Assembly (NCBI GenBank): GCA_903847385.1
Contig: CAINDO010000440.1
Location: forward strand, 6,129-70,128
From: an uncultured Myxococcales bacterium
GTDB taxonomy: Bacteria > Myxococcota_A > Bradymonadia > UBA7976 > UBA1532
Direction: 5' to 3'
Length of the DNA: 64,000 nt
Shown here in pieces: positions 5,695 to 16,941 of this stretch. Within the stretch, counting starts at the first letter, position 1; each line of letters opens with the position of its first letter. The notes under the pieces are model-generated. The model made no database searches. It was not told the DNA's origin and was given only the letters and a program-made list of their open reading frames with translations. The translations under genes and the position numbers were made by a program.

Positions 5695-8600
5695 ATGAAG
5701 TCATTCAAGCACAGCGCTCTCCTCGCCTTCTCGCTCGGCCTCGCCGCGACGGGGTGTTTCTCGGACGCCCCCGAGGGCCTCGCCCAGGCGGACGACGCGC
5801 ACACCACGGTCAAGTTCGACTTCCTGCACAAGCCGCTGCCGGAGATCCCGCTGCCGAACGACGTGGCCACGCGCTACGACCCGGACTCGGCCACGCTCCG
5901 CCGCGTGAACGCCTCGATGATCGCGCCGACCGCGCTCGAGCGCCGCACCCGCACGCTGCTGGACGGCCTGGACGGCTGGGGTCTGTTCCAGCCCATCACG
6001 GTGCCTTTCACGGGCCCGCTGGACATCCAGTCGATTCTCGACGCCCACCGCGACGCCGACTACGACTTCAGCGATGATGTCATCTATCTCATCAATATCA
6101 CTCGGGATTCTCCGGACTTCGGCAAACCCGTGGCCCTCGACCTGGGCAACGGCAACTACCCCGCCGGCACCGAGAGCCGCGAGGACTTCTGGCCGAACGA
6201 TCCGCGCGCCGGCACCATGTCCATCACGTTCGAGGAGTTCGACGAGGACGAGAACGGCAACGGCGAGCTCGACCCCGGCGAGGACACGGACTCCGACGGC
6301 GTGCTCGACCGGCCGAACTACCTGCCGGGAAAGAAGCCGGCCTGGGACGATCTCGCCGCCCGCGAGGACGCCCTCATGTCGTTCTACGAGCGCGAGACGA
6401 ACACGCTGATCGCCGTGCCCGTGGTGCCGTTGCGCGAGCGCACGACCTACGCCGTCGTGGTCACGAAACGCCTGCGGGACGCGGACGGCGACCCCGTCGG
6501 CTCGCCCTTCCCCTTCATCAATCACGCGTCTCAAACCGAGGCGCTCTCGGTGCTGCCCGAGGTCCTGCCCAACGGTCTGTCGCTGGACGACGTCGCCTTC
6601 GCGTTCAGCTACACCACGCAGACCACCAGCAGCGAGTGGCAGGCCGTGCGCGACGGCCTGTACGGCCACGGCGTGCAGAAACACCTGGCCTCGGAGTTCC
6701 CCGCCGAGATCACCTCGCTGGAGTTGGCCAAGGACGCCGCACGGTTCCCCAAGTCCACGCGGCTGTCCACGCTCTTCGCCGAGGAGTTCGACATCCCGTT
6801 TCGTCTGTTGAACACGGCCATCGGCGGCATCGATCCCAGCTCCGAGGCCATGACCCGGCTGATGGACGGCTACCAATACATCGACTACCTGGTGATGGGC
6901 AGCTTCGACTCGCCGCAGCTCTTCGACCGCGAGGACGCCGAGGGCAACCCCCTGCCCATGGACGCGCAGTCCTGGCCGACGGACCTGGACCGCGTGCCCG
7001 CCAAGGCCCGCGCCGAGAAGGTCTATTTCACGCTCGTCACGCCCCGGAAGGAGATCAGTTCTCGGAAAGATGGCAAACCCGCGCCGGTCGTCATCCTGGG
7101 TCACGGCCACGGCGGCAACCGCTTCACGGCGCTGAACTTCGGGCCCTACTTCGCGCGGCATGGCATCGCCGTGCTGGCCATCGACAACCCCGGCCATGGC
7201 ATCAGCATCGCCCCCGAAGACAAGGAGCAGGCCAAGACGATCCTGGGCGGCTTCGGCATCGGGCCGTTCATCGACTCGGTGTTCAAGGACCGCGCGCTGG
7301 ACATGAACTTCGACGGTCTGACCGACTCCGGCGGCGACTTCTGGACGTTCTATCTGTTTCACACGCGCGACAACGTGCGGCAGTCCGCGCTCGATTACAT
7401 GCAGTTGATTCGGATCCTGCGCGGCTTCGACGGCAAACACCGCTGGGACATCGACGTGAACGGCGACGGCAAGAACGACCTGGCCGGCGACTTCGACGGC
7501 GACGGCGAGGTCGACGTCGGCGGCAGCGGCGCCATCACCATGACCGGCGGCTCCCTCGGCGGCATCATGGCCATGCTCATGGGCGACCTGGAGCCGGAGC
7601 TCGACGCCGTCGCCTCCATCATCGGCGGCGGCAGCCTGGGGACCATGTCGCGGCGTTCGATCAACGGCGCCGTGCGGCGCGCCATCGTGCTGCGCGCGTT
7701 CGGCCCGCTGTTTCTGGCCACGCCGACCGACGACGGCAAGACACGCGTCGAGACGATCGTGCCCGATCTGGACGGCACGCCGGCCACCCGCACGCTGGCC
7801 ACGATCGCGAAGATCCCCGCCGGCGCGACGATGGTGGTGGAGAACCTGGCCAACGGCGAGCTCGGCTGCGGCCTGCTCTCGGCGGACGCCCTCGGCCGCG
7901 CCCCCGTGGCCGCGGATCTGGGCGATCCGCTCCGCATCCGGTTCTACGCGGGCGACATCGTGCGCGGCAAAGACTGCGCGCTCGCCGACGGCGCCCGGGA
8001 GATCGCCGAAGTCTCGACCTTCGGCGAAGAGACCGTGTTTCAGGACCAGGCGTACGGCGCCGGCGATCCGCTCGTGGCGCTGGCCGAGGGCATGGGGCTG
8101 CAGCGCTCGTCGCCGGACTTCCGTCGGTTCGCCGGCCTGGGGCCGCTGGTCATGGACCGCGCGGACCCCGCCGTGTACGCGCGGCATCTGTTGAACGAGC
8201 CGCTGACCTACCCGGGCACCGGCCAGAAGACGGGCGCGCACGCGCTGGTCACCACCGCCATCGGCGACCTGAACGTGCCCGTGGACTCGGGCATGACCTT
8301 CGCCCGCGCCGCCGGCATCCTCGACTACCTGAAGCCCAACCCGGCCTTCGGCGTGCCGGACAACCAGGTGCTCATCGACCACCACGTGCCCGAGGGCATG
8401 GACGAGCTGAAGCGATACACCGATCCGGACGGCGTGGGTGTGTTGCTCGATCCCAACGACTTCAGCGGTGACACCGATCTGTGGGCCGGCCGCGTGCCGC
8501 GCCTGGACCCGCCGCTCCGCTCCGGCTTCGACACGAAGGACGCCCTCGGCGGCCGTTCTGCGGCGATCTTCGCCTACGGCAGCCCCCAGGGCATGCACGG

Positions 8601-8867: not shown

Positions 8868-11800
8868 TCAGCGCCGTCGGGTCTCCCGTTCGGCCGATGC
8901 GCGGTAGTTCTCGGCCATCATGGTGCAGAGCCTCGCGGACTCTGGCCACTGCGTTCCGAGGCGCCGGGCGCTGTTCTCCAGCATCTCGGCGAGGATTCGC
9001 TCATGGTACGCGGGGTCGTGCGGGTCGATCTCACGAACGCCCTGGCGGTTGAAATGCGCACGTGCGATCGCCCGTCGGAGCCGCTCGGAGTCGTGCCGCT
9101 TCAGAATTTCGCGCGCCACCGGTGGCGGCCACAGGTCGACCTCGCCCAGGTCCGAGGCGAGGTTGCCGAGGATGTGACCGAGGAAGTCGGCACACCCGAC
9201 GGCGTGGCCCGTCGCGCGACACTGGGCGACGAACGCGTCCGCCCAATTGGGGAGCGTCTCGGGCAGGAACTTCAGATTCAGGCCGAACACCACTCTTTGC
9301 CCGATCCGGCCCAGGTTCGACTCGGGTTGGAGTCTCGTTTCCTCGCCGTCGGGCGTGAACGTCTGCCGGACCACGTCGGCGGCGAAGGCGGGGGAGGTCT
9401 CGAGTGCGCGTCGAATGCGCTCGGGAAGTGGCCCAAAGTCATCGCGAAGGGGCAAGAACTTCAGTTCGAGCGCGACGAGTTCTTCGACCTGAGCCCCGGT
9501 CGCCTCGAGCACGTCGAGGCCAAGCGCAACGACGTCCGAAAACCGGATATCGGGCCGGGTGGGCGTCTCCACGGCCGACAGCGCGGCACGCAGGTGCGTC
9601 GCCTGGGCGCGAACACTCGGCAGGCGTTCCGGCCAGTCCGCGGGCAACGATTCGAGAATCTGGCGCGCGCCACCCCACGCGAGCAACCCGCTCAGGAGAA
9701 TCGTTGCGAGATTGGCGTCCTCCGACCATGGATCGAAGGGCGCGGCCTCCCACCAGGCCGCCTGAATCGGCTCGGGACACGTCGCGAGCCAGTGCAAGAC
9801 AGCCTCCTCGGCGGGCAGCTCTCGCAGCAACGGCTGAGCGACTTCGATGGCACCCCGTCGAAGCAGCTCGTCGAGCCGGTGCAGCCGAGCCTCCACGTCG
9901 AGACGCCTGAAGTACCCAGCGCGGAGCCCGCCGGCGACCGGACCGCGGTCGAGGTCCCAGATCTCGCGGGCGACGCAGTCCGACCACTCCGCGTGTGCAG
10001 CGATGGCCCACCCGAGGCGCGCCGCGCTGTACTCATCGAATTCGGTGAGTTCTGCCGCGTGAAAGAGACAGTCCCCACGCCGGAGGGCGGCGTTCACGAC
10101 CTCCACCAGGCTCGCGTCCGCCCGGCGCAACTTCTCCGCCTCGAAGTCTCGGTACGCCGGAAACTCCCGAATCGACATGCCGTCGAGGTGGTCCGGCTGG
10201 GAGCCGAACATCCACGCGATGTCGCCGAGCCGCACCTCGTCCGGCGCCGGCTGGAGTGCGCCGTAGGCTTGCATCAGAGCTTCGACGGCGTCGCCCTTGA
10301 ACGACCACCATGCGTCGCGAAAGGTCTTGGCGTCGGCGAGATGTTTCCGAAGGGCCCCGCGAACTCGGCGTCGACCGGCCGGTTCGAGTGAGCCCTCTCG
10401 CGATGCTCGCCCCAAGGCATCGAGGCATTGTGTCAGCACATCCTGGCCGAGGATGGGAGAGAGCGCATGCACCAGCGAGGGCCAGACACTGAAGTCGCGC
10501 TCGGCCGTCTTCACGAGTCGATGCACGAGCCACTCGAGGTCACTGTCGGTCATCCGCCCTTGGCCCGGCGCACCCTCGGCCGGGGCGTCGTTGCGACCCT
10601 CCATGAACTCCGGTGGGCCCAAGCCCATCCACATCGCGCCCGAGGGCCGTGGGAGAAGGCCGAGCAGAATCGCGGCGAGCGCCCGGGTCGATGCCCCCCG
10701 CTCGTCCGCCGCGTCGAGCGCCCGCCGGCAACACTCGCCGCCGGTCGCGGAGCTTGCCCATCGAGTCCGCAGGATCGCGTGGAGCGAGGACAACGGACTG
10801 TTGCCGAGCCCGCCGTGCGGCCCGTCGTCTGCGTCTGCGAGCATCAACAGTCGATCGACCACACGCACGAACAGTGCCGGTCCCCACGGGAGCCGTTCCG
10901 GTGCCCACGAGAGCCGTTCCAGCGCCCAGAGCAGTGGAAGTCGGTGTCTCTTCAACGCCTCCGGGTCGAGTGCGTCGAGAAATGCCCCCGGCGCGGTCTC
11001 GGCCAGTGTCTCCAGACACGCCGCGGATGGGGCGGCGAGCGCCCGGCGCACGAGGGTGCCGGCGAGCTGTTCCGCGCGCGTCTTGTCACCCTGCGCGGCG
11101 AACGGGGACCAGCGGATCAGGGCAAGGGCCCGGACGAGGGCGTCGGCCTCGCTGCGCTCGATCGGCTCGGCGTTCTCGGCGACGAGCAGCGCTTCGGCGG
11201 CGTCGAGAATGCGGTGCGCGTTCCCGTTCAACCAGTGCCGTTCGGTCTTTCGCCAGGTGTCGACCGGCGTGCGCCAGCCCCACATCGTACCCCGATCTTC
11301 GAGCGCAATCGGTTCGGCATGGGCAAGGGCCTCGGTTGCGTCCACGACCCGCTCGACCTTCGCTCCAGCGAGGCGGCGAAGCACCACGCCGAGCGGCGCA
11401 CCCGATTTCGGAGACGCGCCGAGGACGAGCGCGGGCCAGACCTCGGCCAGGATCTCGCGCCTGGCCCACGACGCCGATGCGCTCAGGAGCCCTCGCAGCG
11501 CCAGAAACCCGTTGCCGGCGGCCCGCGCTGCCCTGTGAATCGCATCTTGTGGCCAGCGCTCGGCCTCCAGCAGGTCGTGCAATCGCGGCGGAGCGAGGAA
11601 CCGCAAGTGGATCACGGCCGGATCATCGGGCGGGCTTTGTGGCACGCTGGCGTCCGGGCGGCTCCATTCGGTGGATCGAATCACGACATGCGGAGCACGT
11701 GCCGGCAACCGCAGGCGGCCCTCGGGCGTGTCGTCGATGAGAATCAGCCGCTCCGGTGACGACTGGGCGGCGTCGAACGCGGTCCTCGTCGAGATGACGA

Positions 11801-12881
11801 GGGTACGATGGCGAAGCATGGCGAGGGAACCCACCGCATGAGCGGCGAACGCGACGCCCTCGTCCCTGTGCGAAGCCTGAACTTCGACCGAGTGAATCGC
11901 CGGTCGCATTACGGCGCCGAGCAGCGCCGCGACTTCAGCGCTTCGGCCCGCGGCGACTGCGGCCAGTGGCAGGCTCAGCGCCCGAGCGTCGTCGAAGACC
12001 GACTGATCTTCGTCGAAGACCGACTGGTCTTGCCATCGCTTTTCGAAGTCGTCCAGCGAAGAGAGACCGTCGTCCGCGAAGGGTGACCCGATCAACTTCG
12101 AGAACCACCGGCGCACGACCGGGGCCGCATCCAGCCAATGCAGGAGCTGCGGCCGGTCGATGACCCGAACAGCCCGGAAGCCGTGCTTTCGACACTGTGC
12201 GCTGGCCCAGTCCGCCGAGGTCGGCGGCGCGGACCCCCAGAGGTGGGGCGTCACGAACACGACGGTCACATCCGCTGGCAAACGCCCTTCCGCGGCGCAC
12301 TTCGTTTGCGCCGCCGCCAGATCCCGGCCCGCCTTGCTCCGTGCATCGGACTGAACGGAGAACTCCCAGAACGACGGACCCACCGGGACGAAGGGTCCGC
12401 CGAGCCCGCAGGTCACCGCCCCATCCCAACCCTTCCGCTCGGCGTCGTCGCGCAGGAGAAAACGCGGTTGGTCGAGGTCGCGCCACGGGACGGTCGCAAG
12501 TATGAGTCGCCAGACCAGCTCGGGCAACTGCCTCCGCGATTCGAGCGTCGCCGCCCAGCGGTCCAGGTCCATCCGGTTCGGGTCCCAGACACCCCCCGCC
12601 AGCGACCCGATGCGGCCGGTCGCGTCGCCCGCGCTCGGGTCCGGGTCGTCGAGGCGAACCAGACTGGCCACGGACCGGCGCAGCCCGATCGCGAGGCGCT
12701 CGAGGTCTGGACCGGTCAGCGAGGTCTGCTCGCCCGAGAGCAGCCGCGAGATCGTCGACTGCGAGAGGCCGATTCGCTGCGCCCAGGCCCGCTGCGAGAG
12801 GTTTTCAGAAGCGAGACGTTCGGCTATGATCCCGCCGACATCTCGAATCACCGAGATTCTCTCACCAGAGCGCCTGGCCAT
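8868..12881 (-). CDS. 1337-aa protein with an N-terminal XRE-family helix-turn-helix and a large uncharacterised helical body; no P-loop found
   Basis: The N-terminus (..NLSQRAWAQRIGLSQSTISRLLSGEQ) is a typical XRE HTH. The long ORF has non-Arg-biased composition. I found no Walker A motif. It sits divergently to an AbiE-like pair. Confidence 0.65.
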   Translation of the reverse strand: MARRSGERISVIRDVGGIIAERLASENLSQRAWAQRIGLSQSTISRLLSGEQTSLTGPDLERLAIGLRRSVASLVRLDDPDPSAGDATGRIGSLAGGVWDPNRMDLDRWAATLESRRQLPELVWRLILATVPWRDLDQPRFLLRDDAERKGWDGAVTCGLGGPFVPVGPSFWEFSVQSDARSKAGRDLAAAQTKCAAEGRLPADVTVVFVTPHLWGSAPPTSADWASAQCRKHGFRAVRVIDRPQLLHWLDAAPVVRRWFSKLIGSPFADDGLSSLDDFEKRWQDQSVFDEDQSVFDDARALSLPLAAVAAGRSAEVAALLGAVMRPAIHSVEVQASHRDEGVAFAAHAVGSLAMLRHRTLVISTRTAFDAAQSSPERLILIDDTPEGRLRLPARAPHVVIRSTEWSRPDASVPQSPPDDPAVIHLRFLAPPRLHDLLEAERWPQDAIHRAARAAGNGFLALRGLLSASASWARREILAEVWPALVLGASPKSGAPLGVVLRRLAGAKVERVVDATEALAHAEPIALEDRGTMWGWRTPVDTWRKTERHWLNGNAHRILDAAEALLVAENAEPIERSEADALVRALALIRWSPFAAQGDKTRAEQLAGTLVRRALAAPSAACLETLAETAPGAFLDALDPEALKRHRLPLLWALERLSWAPERLPWGPALFVRVVDRLLMLADADDGPHGGLGNSPLSSLHAILRTRWASSATGGECCRRALDAADERGASTRALAAILLGLLPRPSGAMWMGLGPPEFMEGRNDAPAEGAPGQGRMTDSDLEWLVHRLVKTAERDFSVWPSLVHALSPILGQDVLTQCLDALGRASREGSLEPAGRRRVRGALRKHLADAKTFRDAWWSFKGDAVEALMQAYGALQPAPDEVRLGDIAWMFGSQPDHLDGMSIREFPAYRDFEAEKLRRADASLVEVVNAALRRGDCLFHAAELTEFDEYSAARLGWAIAAHAEWSDCVAREIWDLDRGPVAGGLRAGYFRRLDVEARLHRLDELLRRGAIEVAQPLLRELPAEEAVLHWLATCPEPIQAAWWEAAPFDPWSEDANLATILLSGLLAWGGARQILESLPADWPERLPSVRAQATHLRAALSAVETPTRPDIRFSDVVALGLDVLEATGAQVEELVALELKFLPLRDDFGPLPERIRRALETSPAFAADVVRQTFTPDGEETRLQPESNLGRIGQRVVFGLNLKFLPETLPNWADAFVAQCRATGHAVGCADFLGHILGNLASDLGEVDLWPPPVAREILKRHDSERLRRAIARAHFNRQGVREIDPHDPAYHERILAEMLENSARRLGTQWPESARLCTMMAENYRASAERETRRR

Positions 12882-12917
12882 GATTCATTCCAGATTCAAT
12901 GCGAATGAATGAATCAT
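12880..12917. promoter_or_regulatory. AT-rich divergent operator: perfect 11-bp inverted repeat ATGATTCATTC / GAATGAATCAT with a 16-bp spacer
   Basis: The arms lie at 12880-12890 and 12907-12917. Local GC is about 30% in a genome of about 70%. Both divergent start codons lie in or next to the arms. Confidence 0.55.
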
Positions 12918-13472
12918 CTCGAATTCACCGCGCGGAGTCAAATCGTGCTGCAGCCCGTGGACCTCGTGGTCGCCCTGAAGCTTTGCTGCCACGCAGACGG
13001 CCAGCCCGTCTCGCGCGCCGAGAGCGCGGCGTCGCTCGGGATCTCGCGCCGCCGCTTCGACGATGCGGTGACGCGCCTGGTGGCGTCCCGCCTGGCCAGC
13101 GCCGAGAGCCTTCGGCCGCGCGCGCACTCGCTGATGGAGTTCCTCTGCGCGGGTGTCCCCTATTGGCTCCCCGCCGAGGTCGGTGCGATCGCTCGGGGTA
13201 TGCCCGCCGCCACATCCGGTCCGGGGCTCGAGGGACTCGGGCCGATTCAACTCGCCGAAGTGGGTGAATGGGTCTGGCCCGGCGCCCCGGCCCCGTTCGA
13301 TCGGCATGTCGGCAAGGCGCTCCAACCCATCGACCCCATCGTGCCGACGGCCGCGGCGCGCGATCAGCGGCTCTACGAACTTCTGAGCCTGCTCGACACC
13401 CTGCGGGTCGGTCATGTCCGTGAGCGCGACGCCGCGCGCGCCGGCCTGTCGCGACGCCTGGGGCTGACGTGA
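12909..13472 (+). CDS. HTH-containing small protein, AbiEi-like putative antitoxin or regulator
   Basis: A winged-HTH-like segment (VSRAESAASLGISRRRFDDAVTRLVASRL). Its stop overlaps the downstream GTG start as GTGA. Confidence 0.5.
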   Translation: MNHLEFTARSQIVLQPVDLVVALKLCCHADGQPVSRAESAASLGISRRRFDDAVTRLVASRLASAESLRPRAHSLMEFLCAGVPYWLPAEVGAIARGMPAATSGPGLEGLGPIQLAEVGEWVWPGAPAPFDRHVGKALQPIDPIVPTAAARDQRLYELLSLLDTLRVGHVRERDAARAGLSRRLGLT

Positions 13473-14158
13473 GTCGCGTGCCGATCAGCCGCGCGGTCTT
13501 CGCGACTGTCGCACGAGTGCTCCAGGCAGGCGGTGTGCGGGTCGTCTTCGTCGGCGGCGCGACCGTCCCACTGCGGGTCGATCTCGTCGCCGGCAACGCT
13601 CGGGTGACCGACGACATCGATTGCGTGGTCGATGCGGTGAGCTACGCCGAGTATGCCGCGCTGCTGGACCGGCTCCGTGCCCTGGGCTTCAGCGACGCCC
13701 CGGAAGAGGGCGTCACCTGCCGGATGCGTCTGGGCAGTGTCCTGATGGACTTCATGCCCCGCGCGAACCTCCCGCTGGCGCCGAGCAGTCCGTTCTTCGA
13801 GCGCATCTGGATGGACCCCGACAGCCTCGAGGTCGAGCCGGGCTTCACGATTCCCGTGGCCCGCATCGGCGATCTGTTCGCGACGAAGGTCGAGGCATTT
13901 CTGGACCGCGGTGCTGCCGATCCTTACGCGAGCAAGGACCTGGAAGACCTCGTGACGCTCCTGGACGGGAGAGCCGGCCTCCTCGACGAACTCGACGCAG
14001 CGAGGGCAGAGGTTCGAGTCGCCGCCGCGCGCTGGGCCGCCTGGATGAGCGCGCGCAGGGACGGTGAGGATCTCGTCGCGGCGTGGTTCTGGGGGAGAGA
14101 CGCAGAACGCCGCTCCGCAACGGTCTGGGCGTTGGTCAAACGGCTCGCCGCGCGCTGA
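13469..14158 (+). CDS. Nucleotidyltransferase-fold protein, AbiEii/DUF1814-like putative toxin
   Basis: N-terminal VVFVGGATVPLRV..ARVTDDIDCVVD matches the Gly-rich loop plus R-x-T-x-D-[IL]-D nucleotidyltransferase signature of AbiEii-family toxins, as I recall it. About 229 aa. The GTG start overlaps the upstream stop. Confidence 0.5.
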   Translation: MSRVPISRAVFATVARVLQAGGVRVVFVGGATVPLRVDLVAGNARVTDDIDCVVDAVSYAEYAALLDRLRALGFSDAPEEGVTCRMRLGSVLMDFMPRANLPLAPSSPFFERIWMDPDSLEVEPGFTIPVARIGDLFATKVEAFLDRGAADPYASKDLEDLVTLLDGRAGLLDELDAARAEVRVAAARWAAWMSARRDGEDLVAAWFWGRDAERRSATVWALVKRLAAR

Positions 14159-14279: not shown

Positions 14280-15224
14280 TCATGGCCAGTCGGGCGCGAG
14301 GCACCGCAACTGGGAGCGCCCGTGGGGCTCCTCGGCGACCGCGCAACGCGCGCCGAACGTTGCGCAATCCAGCGCGACCTCCAAACCCTCCAGACACGCG
14401 CGAATGACGGCGCCGTCGCAGGACTCGCGCGTCTCGTCGCCGGCGCAGGCCGGATCGGGCGCGTTGGGCCGGCACCCCGGGCCCTCGTCCATCATCACGC
14501 AATCGTGGCGCGCGGAATACACTCGGCAGTCAAGACGCCCATCGACACGGGGGACGCCGCTCTCCCGGTCGCACCGGAGGGCCACGCCGTCGACGCACGC
14601 GTCGCCGCTGCATCCGGCGGACTCACCACAAGCGTGGAGACCCTCTTCGATCTCCAAACACGTCTGCCCGGCCAGCACACAAGCCCGGCGCCTCTCGTAC
14701 CCACCGATGCATTCGACGACGAAGTCACCTTCACACCGTGACACGCCCTCCACATCGCACGGCGCGCCGACGCAGCTCGGGTGAATGTCTTCGTCCTCGT
14801 TGGGGGCAAGGCGACACACGGACACCGGCCCCCCGACTGCGGGGCAGGAGGTGCGCTCGACGTAGGCCTCACCGTTCGGCTGACTCGAACACGAGGTGCG
14901 CGTCGTGTCCCCCTCACAGGCGGACAGCGTCGACTCGGCGTCACAGCGCTCGCCCAGGTCCAGACAGGCCAAGACCGCCGGACAGTCGGCCGCGCCACGG
15001 ACGCAATCGACTTGGTCGTGGAGGGCGACGCGCAGCGCAGGCCCGCCGACGGCGAGCCCCTGGAGGACTCTGCCGAGCGCCGCGCCCGCCGGAGACCCGG
15101 TGCATACGCTCATCCGCACCGCGTACGCGACGAGATAGGGGTCGTGAAGGCCGGTCGGCGACCGGTCCCCCGAGCACCCGCCGAAGAGCGCGATGCCGAC
15201 CCACGTTGTTTCGAAGCGTCCCAT
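14280..15224 (-). CDS. Cys-rich secreted lipoprotein
   Basis: [18 protein letters not shown] carries a lipobox, and the rest has spaced Cys modules. The start ATG overlaps the upstream gene's TGA as ATGA. Confidence 0.6.
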   Translation of the reverse strand: MGRFETTWVGIALFGGCSGDRSPTGLHDPYLVAYAVRMSVCTGSPAGAALGRVLQGLAVGGPALRVALHDQVDCVRGAADCPAVLACLDLGERCDAESTLSACEGDTTRTSCSSQPNGEAYVERTSCPAVGGPVSVCRLAPNEDEDIHPSCVGAPCDVEGVSRCEGDFVVECIGGYERRRACVLAGQTCLEIEEGLHACGESAGCSGDACVDGVALRCDRESGVPRVDGRLDCRVYSARHDCVMMDEGPGCRPNAPDPACAGDETRESCDGAVIRACLEGLEVALDCATFGARCAVAEEPHGRSQLRCLAPDWP

Positions 15225-16888
15225 CAAGCGCGCCGCCCCCGCCGCCGCACGAACATCCACCGCCCGACGAGCAGGCCGGCCATCCACGGCACCGACGTCG
15301 GCAGGCGCGGTCTCGCGGGGGCCTGCAGGGGCGCCGCGTCGGCCTCGATCCCATCGGCCGTGACGCTCTCGGGCCCGCCGCCCGGGCCGAAGCGCGGGGT
15401 GTTCGCCCCCACGGCCTCGCAGCGCACGAAGCCGCTCGGGTCGACGAACGCGCCGGCGCCGGCGCCGCAGACACAGGCCGGGAAGCCGTTCTTCAACACA
15501 CAGTGTCCGTCGCCGCACGCGTAGACGTTGCAGGGGTCGAAGCTGCCCTGGGCGCCCGCCGCCTCGTCCGTGATGCCCAGGGGGCTCTCGCGGGGCGTGC
15601 AGGTCACGCGCGCCCGGCGATCCGGGCCGATGACCGGCTGCGCAACGTCGCCCTCGGCGCAGAGACAGTGGGCGGCCTGGCCGGACTCGGCGGCACACTC
15701 CGCGCCCGCGCCGCAGTAGTTGTCGAAACATGCGCTCGGCGCGGCGGCGGCGGTGCAGGCGTCGATGGGCGTCTGGCTCGACAGGTCGACGATCGCGGGC
15801 GCGGTGTTTCGACCGGGTCCGGGCACGAAGACCGGGTCCTGGGTCATGTGTTGCGCGCTGAGGCGCGTGTAGAAGCGGGTGACCCAGGGGAAGCCCGTGG
15901 TCCGCTTTTCCATCCCGGGCAGGGGCAGGTCGACACCATGGGCGCCGGTGTATTCGAGCACCCAGCGCTGGCCGTCCGACTCGTCCGCGAGGCGCGCGAC
16001 CCACTCGAAGTAGTTGGTCTGCAGGGTCACCGGGTCGAAGACGATGCCCTCCGGATCGGGCAGCACGCTCTCACCGCCGAACCGCCCGAAGGTCGCGTCG
16101 CCGAGGATGTGAACGCCGATGCCCATCAGCGGCTGTGCGGCGACGGCGGTGAGCCGCAACGGGATGGCAGGCCCCGAGGCCTCGTAACACAGGACCACGG
16201 GGGCGATGTTCTGTGCGGTCTTGCCGTCCCGCAGGCGAAACGCCGCGAACTTCAGGTGCTCGTCGACATAGGCCGCGACGGCCGGGCGCATGTTGTCGGA
16301 GAAGTTGAAGCCGTTGTCGCGCAGCCACGTGATCAGCTCGTCGGCGCTCTCGCTGCCCACCACGACCGCCTCGTAGTTGTCCGTCGTGACCTCGGAGTAC
16401 ACCGTGACGGGCGGCTCGGTCTCGTCTGCGTTGCCACTGCCGCCGGCATCGCCCATGGCCGAGGTCGACGTGTCGTCGCCACACCCGCACCCGGACGACG
16501 CTTCGCCGCCACCGGAGTCCGGGAACCTGCACGCCGAGTAGTCGTACGGCGGCGGAAGCACCGTCAGCCCCGTCACCGCGTCCAGGCGCGCGAACAACGC
16601 CGGATCGGACTCGGCGATGGTGGGCACGGCGGGCACGGGCACGATCCAGGCGAAGGTGTCCGCGGCGCCGCGGTACTGGATCTGCACGTGGGAGCAGACG
16701 ATGCCGGCGGCGGAGTCGACCACGAAGACGATGCGCTCGCCGTTCTGGTCCACGGGCGCCGGCGCGCCGCCCCCGGCGCCGGTGTTGGCGCAGAAGAGCC
16801 CACCGCAAGCGAGCGCGGGCGCAGGCTCAAGAGCGGCGCCGAACAGCGAGAGCCCGAGCGCGACGCGATGATGGAACGCTGACCCCAT
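15224..16888 (-). CDS. Secreted protein whose mature N-terminus begins CGG (DUF2330-like) and which has a hydrophobic plus Arg-rich C-terminal tail
   Basis: Signal peptide [27 protein letters not shown], then CGGLFC. The C-terminus [20 protein letters not shown] is an anchor or sorting-like tail. GGGAGGG ribosome-binding site upstream. The 3' end is coupled to 14280..15224. Confidence 0.6.
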
Positions 16889-16941
16889 GGAACGCCCTCC
16901 CGCCGGGTGCCGAAGTCGACCGAGCGCCGACCATACCCCGA

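Follow-up and report, generated by a model that had tools for sequence, protein, structure and literature searches.

Does a pair of overlapping genes from an uncultured Myxococcales bacterium constitute an AbiE abortive-infection system, or does it join an AbiEii-type toxin to a partner of a different kind? The pair lies in a 64,000-nucleotide stretch of contig CAINDO010000440.1 (the window; 72% G+C) and comprises a gene for a winged helix-turn-helix (wHTH) protein, referred to here as the partner, followed by a gene for a nucleotidyltransferase (NTase). An initial annotation had described it as an AbiEi/AbiEii-like module. The AbiEii half of this description holds, as the NTase falls within the AbiEii superfamily, whereas the AbiEi half does not, the partner reaching 13.2 bits against the Pfam AbiEi_4 model (PF13338), for which the cut-off is 25. 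The preferred reading, with a probability of roughly 75%, is a self-contained, horizontally mobile and self-repressed two-gene toxin-antitoxin (TA) cassette of the DUF1814 (AbiEii/MenT) superfamily. The second gene would encode a short MenT1/COG4849-like NTase with a GG...DxD...K...DxxD active site, which by homology would add nucleotides to the 3' CCA ends of tRNAs and so block aminoacylation and translation. The winged helix of the partner would repress the operon through an ATTC/GAAT-based inverted repeat in the promoter region, and its C-terminal domain would neutralize the toxin, most likely in that it binds the toxin and triggers auto-phosphorylation of its Thr47, as MenA1 does with T39 of MenT1.

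The coupled gene pair and its nucleotidyltransferase

The pair corresponds to two same-strand open reading frames (ORFs), 12909-13472 (+, ATG, 187 aa) and 13469-14158 (+, GTG, 229 aa), which share the GTGA tetranucleotide 13469-13472, common to the stop codon of the first (TGA, 13470-13472) and the start codon of the second (GTG, 13469-13471), as the initial annotation had proposed. Both ORFs are real genes under purifying selection, because they show a coding-type G+C content at third codon positions (GC3, 0.83-0.84), which amid the many spurious high-GC ORFs of this region is limited to these two frames, and because most of their codon differences from a metagenomic relative are synonymous. 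This relative, L001, is 91-96% identical and served as the reference for both genes; it differs from the partner by 29 synonymous and 11 non-synonymous codons, and from the NTase by 32 and 11, respectively. The GTGA junction is identical in L001 and in a second syntenic locus, L094, whose NTase is called from the GTG at the overlap. Another GTG is found at 13478, 5 nt beyond the partner stop codon, and the gene caller picked its equivalent in L001. The 4-nt overlap hinges on GTG 13469 being the NTase start, and GTG 13478 may serve as an alternative; whichever is used, the two genes are predicted to be translationally coupled.

Profile, motif and model evidence together identify the downstream protein as a predicted DUF1814/AbiEii-superfamily NTase, in line with the family named in the initial annotation. 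It matches Pfam PF08843 (AbiEii/DUF1814) over residues 21-181 at 38.2 bits (cut-off 22.5, E 2e-9), as do 23 of 30 relatives at the family level, and it matches the PADLOC model PDC-M21B with an E-value of 4.6e-41. The four motifs that Dy et al. 2014 (PMC3985639) described for DUF1814 toxins are all found, namely hGG, an Arg-containing DxD, KLxAaxxR and +DxxD (Table 1), and their residues are kept in 57-59 of 59 non-redundant intact homologues from independent loci. The variable positions within these motifs are F144, the aromatic position of KLxAaxxR, and K156, the positively charged position of +DxxD. The initial annotation had pointed to a glycine-rich loop and an R-V-T-D-D-I-D signature; the former is V-F-V-G-G-A-T at residues 26-32, and the latter spans residues 45-51. 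This second motif combines the family-specific Arg (R45), the metal-binding DxD and Thr47, the equivalent of the MenT1 phospho-acceptor T39. The catalytic Asp pair, which had been singled out as a check, is present on alignment as D49 and D51. Thr47 is a Thr in 58 of the 59 homologues and aligns with the Thr of R-F-T-R-D-V-D in MenT1; the phospho-acceptor Ser/Thr of such toxins lies two residues before the first catalytic Asp (T39 in MenT1, S78 in MenT3). The G-to-D spacing is 18 residues, versus the 15 reported for AbiEii.

Structural comparison points to the same relatives. A family-profile search of the PDB returns Mycobacterium tuberculosis MenT1 (8an4, E 2.3e-5) as the best solved relative. 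Four MenT1 residues have been experimentally shown to matter, T39, D41, K137 and D152 (PMC11375011), and in the profile alignment they correspond to T47, D49, K140 and D160 of the NTase, the D160 mapping being extrapolated three residues past the end of the alignment. The AlphaFold model of the NTase has a mean predicted local distance difference test score (pLDDT) of 92, and a Foldseek search with it places MenT1 chains at the top (E ~1e-6, TM-score 0.5-0.63), followed by a fungal DUF1814 protein, ANT(2'')-Ia and JHP933. Searches of NCBIfam and PHROGs return no match for either the NTase or the partner.

The presence of ANT(2'')-Ia and JHP933 among the fold matches (E 1e-4 to 1e-3), together with the location of the pair amid ordinary metabolic genes in several loci, would fit a non-toxic regulator-enzyme pair in which the NTase modifies either a protein or a small molecule, in the latter case perhaps an antibiotic as ANT(2'')-Ia does, with the wHTH protein serving only as its transcriptional regulator. 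However, both MenT1 and Pfam AbiEii outscore the ANT enzymes, which also settles the question of an unrelated aminoglycoside family, raised in the initial annotation, in favor of MenT1 as the best structural match. Conservation extends to motifs III and IV, which are specific to DUF1814, and to the phospho-acceptor Thr, and the gene overlap, the patchy spread across phyla, the atypical composition and the frequent decay of the NTase gene are TA hallmarks. A plain repressor role would, in addition, leave the conserved C-terminal domain of the partner unexplained. A regulator-enzyme pair is therefore regarded as highly improbable.

The reading as a TA cassette instead draws on what is established for the superfamily. 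MenT and AbiEii toxins extend tRNA 3' ends, with a pyrimidine preference in several cases, and the toxin is neutralized by an auto-phosphorylation that the antitoxin induces, AbiE having been reclassified as type VII (PMC11375011; bioRxiv 10.64898/2026.01.19.700257). Two labels of the initial annotation are consequently unsafe: 'GTP-dependent', since related toxins add nucleotides to tRNA, in several cases preferring pyrimidines, and 'type IV', since AbiE is now assigned to type VII through auto-phosphorylation. Toxicity, the tRNA target and the choice of nucleotide may follow these relatives in the present NTase as well.

In three Bacteroidia loci, an ORF of ~495 aa begins with the NTase domain (L052 5494-6981, L057 4758-6242 and L065 4322-5827). 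The toxin seems to be fused there to an extra C-terminal region of ~265 aa.

The winged-helix partner and its putative operator

The AlphaFold model of the partner, built for the 187-aa ORF (pLDDT 88.8), consists of a winged helix and an alpha/beta C-terminal domain, in agreement with the wHTH assignment of the initial annotation. The recognition helix occupies approximately residues 47-59 (S-R-R-R-F-D-D-A-V-T-R-L). Foldseek and a profile search of the PDB match the protein in the winged helix alone, to wHTH proteins of the MarR/ArsR/Rrf2 type, and the C-terminal domain has no Pfam, PDB-sequence or Foldseek match. This domain is nevertheless marked by a set of family-invariant residues: G82, G97, W123, G135, P140, R166, G168, R171 and E172. 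It also includes a conserved R-G-x-P-T-A loop. Pfam yields sub-threshold wHTH matches alone, HTH_29 (16.5 bits) beside the AbiEi_4 score given above. Across 68 members of the partner family, weak Pfam wHTH matches recur, AbiEi_4 is touched weakly by just two, and no Pfam match covers the C-terminal two-thirds. Among the top 50 Foldseek matches in the PDB, neither AbiEi (6y8q) nor MenA appears. By these comparisons, the upstream protein is not an AbiEi, and its C-terminal domain is not of the type seen in the structures of AbiEi (6Y8Q) and MenA3. It does match the PADLOC model PDC-M21A (E 3.7e-25). A link to the AbiEi-like DUF6088 protein of a Bacteroidota locus (L063) was considered and rejected, as profile comparison gave a probability of 0.7%, in the HTH alone.

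These results bear directly on a classical AbiE system, in which an AbiEi antitoxin (COG5340) and an AbiEii GTP-binding toxin would mediate abortive infection as a non-interacting pair of type IV. The above-threshold Pfam AbiEii match, the antitoxin-first bicistronic layout with its overlap, the partner made of a wHTH and a C-terminal domain, and a promoter region with an inverted repeat, like that of abiE, would all be expected of such a system. Against it stand the AbiEi_4 scores and the lack of 6y8q among the fold matches just described, as well as the NTase itself, which is short, carries a motif III of the COG4849 type and aligns to a long AbiEii over the N-terminal catalytic region alone. 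Furthermore, AbiE itself is reported to work by complex formation and auto-phosphorylation. A classical AbiE is thus very unlikely here.

The partner is also probably shorter than the 187 residues given in the initial annotation. The most likely start is GTG 12945 (175 aa) rather than ATG 12909, on five grounds. In codons 1-12 counted from ATG 12909, all 6 codon differences from L001 are non-synonymous (0 synonymous), and this stretch is the least conserved of the alignment; GGAG stands 7 nt 5' of GTG 12945 and is kept in L001; the N-terminus is MLQPVD in L094 and in two close protein relatives (P0110 and P0111); the usual length in the partner family is 167-180 aa; and a promoter-like site overlaps the extension. 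Residues 1-8 of the 187-aa model have a pLDDT <50. The interval 12909-12944 is probably non-coding, consisting of 5' untranslated region (UTR) and promoter DNA.

An inverted-repeat search upstream of the partner gene brought out a 24-bp palindrome, ATTCGCnATTCG followed by CGAATnGCGAAT, which 69 of 85 loci, drawn from many phyla, carry with a match at >=18 of the 22 specified positions, mostly 22-60 nt upstream of the inferred start. Of 4,915 background windows taken from these loci, 0 reached this score. The palindrome-bearing loci include L006, L015, L021, L050, L062, L064, L075 and 62 others. The palindrome is a putative protein-binding DNA site, since its sequence is kept across phyla and no co-variation is seen between the two N positions; an RNA-hairpin reading was rejected on the same two observations.

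The palindrome co-varies with the recognition helix of the partner. A helix start of the form S-x-S-E-[V/I] is found in 63 of 69 loci with the canonical palindrome versus 3 of 18 without it (Fisher p = 1.3e-9). A sub-group with the helix S-A-S-T-V has the outer half-sites GTTC...GAAC, and the clade of the window combines the helix S-R-R-R-F with another arrangement of the same ATTC/GAAT units. In the window, the putative operator is a perfect 11-bp inverted repeat (Table 1), whose score (z 3.8) was reached by 1 of 100 shuffles and which is kept in L001 and L094 despite divergence of the adjacent spacer. Two sigma-70-like sites accompany it, versus 0.0 expected in shuffles. The palindrome data provide in-silico support for auto-repression by the partner, which would bind this site through its winged helix; AbiEi likewise binds promoter inverted repeats for auto-repression (PMC3985639).

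Table 1. Features of the gene pair and its promoter region, in window positions
Feature	Position	Strand	Evidence or remark
1337-aa protein, N-terminal XRE/HigA-like HTH (divergent gene)	8868..12881	-	HTH_31 and HTH_3 matches
Sigma-70-like match TTTTCA-17-TATGAT, could drive the pair; inside 5' end of divergent gene	12802..12830	+	Consensus match alone
Putative operator, perfect 11-bp inverted repeat, ATGATTCATTC (12880-90) and GAATGAATCAT (12907-17)	12880..12917		ATTC/GAAT units; spans divergent start region
In-frame ORF extension, probably 5' UTR/promoter	12909..12944	+	Codon pattern vs L001, pLDDT, promoter-like site
Sigma-70-like match TTGACT-17-GATGAT, could drive divergent 1337-aa gene	12913..12941	-	Consensus match alone
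GGAG, Shine-Dalgarno-like	12934..12937	+	Sequence; L001 conservation
Partner gene (putative antitoxin and auto-repressor)	12945..13472	+	ORF, PDC-M21A match, purifying selection
wHTH domain, residues 16-70 of 187-aa ORF	12954..13118	+	Model; Foldseek/PDB-sequence matches
C-terminal alpha/beta domain, residues 72-183, proposed toxin-neutralizing	13122..13457	+	Invariant columns; function inferred
GTGA start/stop overlap, implies coupling	13469..13472	+	Sequence; L001, L094
DUF1814/AbiEii-superfamily NTase (putative toxin), short MenT1/COG4849-like, 229 aa	13469..14158	+	Pfam, PADLOC, PDB profile, model
Motif I, G29-G30 of hG[G/S] (V28-G29-G30)	13553..13558	+	G29 59/59, G30 58/59
Motif II, R45-V-T47-D-D49-I-D51 (residues 45-51)	13601..13621	+	58-59/59; profile alignment to MenT1
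D94, third conserved acidic residue of NTase core	13748..13750	+	58/59; invariant in alignment of relatives
Motif III, K140-V-E-A-F-L-D-R147, KLxAaxxR (COG4849 type)	13886..13909	+	K140 59/59, R147 57/59
Motif IV, K156-D157-L-E-D160, +DxxD	13934..13948	+	D157, D160 59/59

Distribution, decay and genomic setting

The partner family is large and widespread. It comprises at least 1,710 clusters at 90% identity and at least 3,616 clusters at 50% identity (E up to 1e-3), 1,086 of which reach E 1e-30, and occupies at least 524 loci in one-genome-per-species data. The phyla that carry it include Verrucomicrobiota, Acidobacteriota, Bacteroidota, Myxococcota, Cyanobacteria, Proteobacteria, Ignavibacteria and others. 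The partner domain is also seen at the N-terminal end of P0302 (1020 aa) and P0359 (1468 aa), two very large proteins that are possible fusions of the module of wHTH plus C-terminal domain to other functions.

The association of the two genes was surveyed in 89 non-redundant loci, made up of 78 genome loci retrieved by scanning a genome collection with the partner alignment, the loci found starting from the toxin, and the window. In the 8 distinct toxin-first contexts, the partner is always directly upstream and on the same strand. Across the 89 loci, 58 have an intact pair and 5 are limited by a contig end, while an intact partner stands beside a fragmented NTase in 13 and has no NTase downstream in another 13; these last two counts are biased toward intact partners, most of the loci having been retrieved through the partner, which weakens their weight in favor of a TA cassette. 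The genes overlap by 1-26 nt in 53 of the 58 intact pairs, with the start codon in the NTGA position in 14. The overlap that the initial annotation had called typical of TA pairs thus extends to the family, which behaves as a coupled TA cassette. The decay pattern is that expected if the NTase were the harmful gene of the two.

A reversed polarity like that of HEPN-MNT systems, in which the NTase would be the antitoxin and its upstream neighbor the toxin, would be in keeping with the weak resemblance, below threshold, of the NTase to two minimal-NTase families, DUF2204 and DUF6036. It conflicts with the decay pattern, as a toxin should not be tolerated so often on its own or next to a broken NTase (13 + 13 loci), and with the DNA-binding domain and conserved operator of the partner. 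The HEPN-like Rx4-6H is not among the conserved residues of the partner, and for this reason, and for the common orphan partners, a HEPN-MNT reading was rejected. Reversed polarity is scarcely credible.

The neighboring genes differ from locus to locus and include transposases, helicases, a WYL regulator and plain metabolic genes, a variability in keeping with an autonomous mobile cassette. Within the window, the composition suggests that the pair and the gene divergent from it lie on a horizontally acquired segment, because their GC3 and G+C content are lower than those of the surroundings: GC3 is 0.83-0.84 for the pair and 0.81 for the divergent gene, versus 0.90-0.93 for the flanking genes (0.90-0.97 for most other genes), and between 6000 and 14000 the G+C content falls to 0.68-0.70, versus 0.71-0.77 across most of the rest.

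The divergent gene encodes a 1337-aa protein with no Pfam domain beyond its N-terminal HTH. It is separated from the pair by a spacer of 27-63 bp and shares its operator region, which raises the prospect of a three-gene unit in which this XRE-HTH protein would be a sensor or effector, co-regulated through the shared repeat within a larger defense or stress island. In support of such a unit, synteny with the pair holds in L001 and L094 even where identity has dropped to 45% in the large protein and to ~60% in the pair; the intergenic inverted repeat is kept in all three loci; all three genes share the low GC3 of 0.81-0.84; and the large protein matches the phage family phrog_18693 (E 1.8e-30). 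Yet the synteny may reflect no more than relatedness of the three genomes, and the large gene was not seen in 6 further listed contexts, the 78 genome loci not having been searched with it. A metagenome scan with the 1337-aa protein alone found nothing, and a scan with a three-sequence alignment found one distant relative, L095, which lacks an adjacent pair; this argues against the large protein being a general component of the cassette. The third protein of the PADLOC system discussed below, PDC-M21C, is also different from the 1337-aa protein. A three-gene unit is thus quite unlikely, and the large gene appears to be linked to the pair in the lineage of the window alone.

Past the NTase gene of the window, no site resembling an intrinsic terminator was found. 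Downstream of the pair, a Cys-rich repeat protein, probably secreted, is encoded at 14280-15300 (-), where L001 carries a different, 861-aa gene, and a protein that is DUF2330-like by eye and by synteny is encoded at 15224-16900 (-). Other loci have neighbors of their own. In L003 (6805-12079), the pair lies near a DEAD/MZB helicase (SngC/DruE/BrxH models) and a UvrD helicase (GajB models), and in L006 (4692-5417) the gene beside the pair matches the PADLOC candidate PDC-S24 (E 9e-53). Two Bacteroidota loci have a partner without its cognate NTase, followed in L033 (1596-3519) by a pair of DUF6577 and AbiEii genes and in L063 (5619-7357) by a pair of DUF6088 and AbiEii genes.

Relation to known systems and weight of the evidence

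Three characterized or described systems resemble the cassette, each in a different respect. MenAT1 of M. tuberculosis (Rv0078B-Rv0078A) has, like the present pair, a short toxin (~200-230 aa) and the antitoxin gene first, and MenT1 is the best solved-structure match to the NTase by both profile and fold, with T39, D41, K137 and D152 conserved here, at ~21-23% sequence identity. Its antitoxin is of another kind: MenA1 has 68 aa, is related to MazE and lacks a DNA-binding domain (PMC7450476), and the system is not auto-regulated, whereas the partner here has 175-187 aa, a wHTH, a folded C-terminal domain and a conserved operator. AbiE (Lactococcus lactis and Streptococcus agalactiae; also MenAT3, MenAT4, RlegTA, SanaTA and SdenTA; COG5340-COG2253) shares the PF08843 toxin superfamily with its four motifs, an antitoxin made of a wHTH and a C-terminal domain, a bicistronic overlapping operon and promoter inverted repeats. 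It differs in that the partner here is not COG5340/AbiEi by Pfam, PDB sequence search or Foldseek, and in toxin length, the AbiEii-type toxins of L033 and L063 being ORFs of 331-369 aa, versus ~230 aa here with a COG4849-type motif III. MenAT2 (Rv0837c-Rv0836c; COG4861-COG4849) shares the KLxAaxxR motif described for COG4849 NTases, which are reported downstream of a putative wHTH regulator, as here. Unlike COG4861, however, which is described as much larger than its toxin, the partner is smaller than its NTase, a comparison made by description only.

The pair itself is already catalogued. In PDC-M21 (PADLOC; Payne et al., bioRxiv 10.1101/2024.01.29.577857), gene 1 corresponds to the A match and gene 2 to the B match. 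PDC systems are phage-defense candidates derived from guilt-by-embedding, and the supplementary table of that preprint lists PDC-M21 as a three-family cassette with 166 occurrences. The toxin family is therefore known and the module recorded, and the partner would represent an uncharacterized antitoxin family with a distinctive operator.

Besides the retrieval bias of the survey, several observations weigh against a self-repressed, mobile TA cassette, or against a role for it in phage defense. With regard to the toxin, a phmmer search of the PDB with the NTase as a single sequence returned nothing relevant, and the fold match to MenT1 is moderate (TM-score ~0.5-0.6, root-mean-square deviation 8-9 Å). 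With regard to the antitoxin, the C-terminal domain of the partner resembles no known antitoxin in the searches made, and what suggests its neutralizing role is gene context. The operator of the window agrees with the family consensus at just 12 of 22 positions, and it lies between two genes for HTH proteins, so that the large XRE protein could bind it instead. With regard to defense, PDC-M21 is a candidate system only, and the same source lists a two-family form with 713 occurrences that was rejected in curation, the portion available giving no reason; the neighbors of the pair in the window match no known defense models; and the S. agalactiae AbiE gave no protection against 32 coliphages. 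Finally, the partner was found on just 2 of 2.9 million viral contigs, and the cassette is therefore not typically phage-borne. A phage-defense function would remain one conceivable use of the cassette.

The TA reading matters chiefly for how the toxin may be controlled. DUF1814 toxins (AbiEii and MenT1-4) are the current model for tRNA-targeting toxins and for antitoxin-induced auto-phosphorylation, a mode of control so far shown with only two unrelated antitoxin types, to which the cassette would add a third, structurally unrelated and widespread partner. Given an operator that is kept across phyla and changes in step with the recognition helix, DNA recognition as well as toxin control are open to simple direct tests. 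For annotation, the PADLOC PDC-M21A/B models would detect a MenT-like TA pair, usually without a third gene, and the window would carry an ordinary-looking TA module, probably horizontally acquired, and not a classical AbiE.

A more far-reaching proposal would make the partner a new, pan-phylum class of antitoxin that induces auto-phosphorylation of Thr47 and reads the 24-bp operator, with PDC-M21C able to re-arm the toxin and the cassette of the window wired to the 1337-aa protein as a sensor; taken as a whole, it is unlikely. In a comparison of the C protein of L002 with all ORFs, PDC-M21C was not found in the window and, among the 89 loci, was found in L002 alone. There, in Sinorhizobium meliloti (CP140960.1), it directly follows the pair (6883-7464, E 2.5e-63). 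Its match to BurrH in the PDB was discarded as a repeat artefact with no significant single stretch. The protein has a sub-threshold match to PP2C_2 (15.1 bits, E 0.017) and contains the motifs GDCVLG and ATDGFW. AbiEii can be dephosphorylated in vitro by a phosphatase of the PP2C type (bioRxiv 10.64898/2026.01.19.700257), and a PP2C-like M21C would fit phospho-control of the toxin, as a weak lead.

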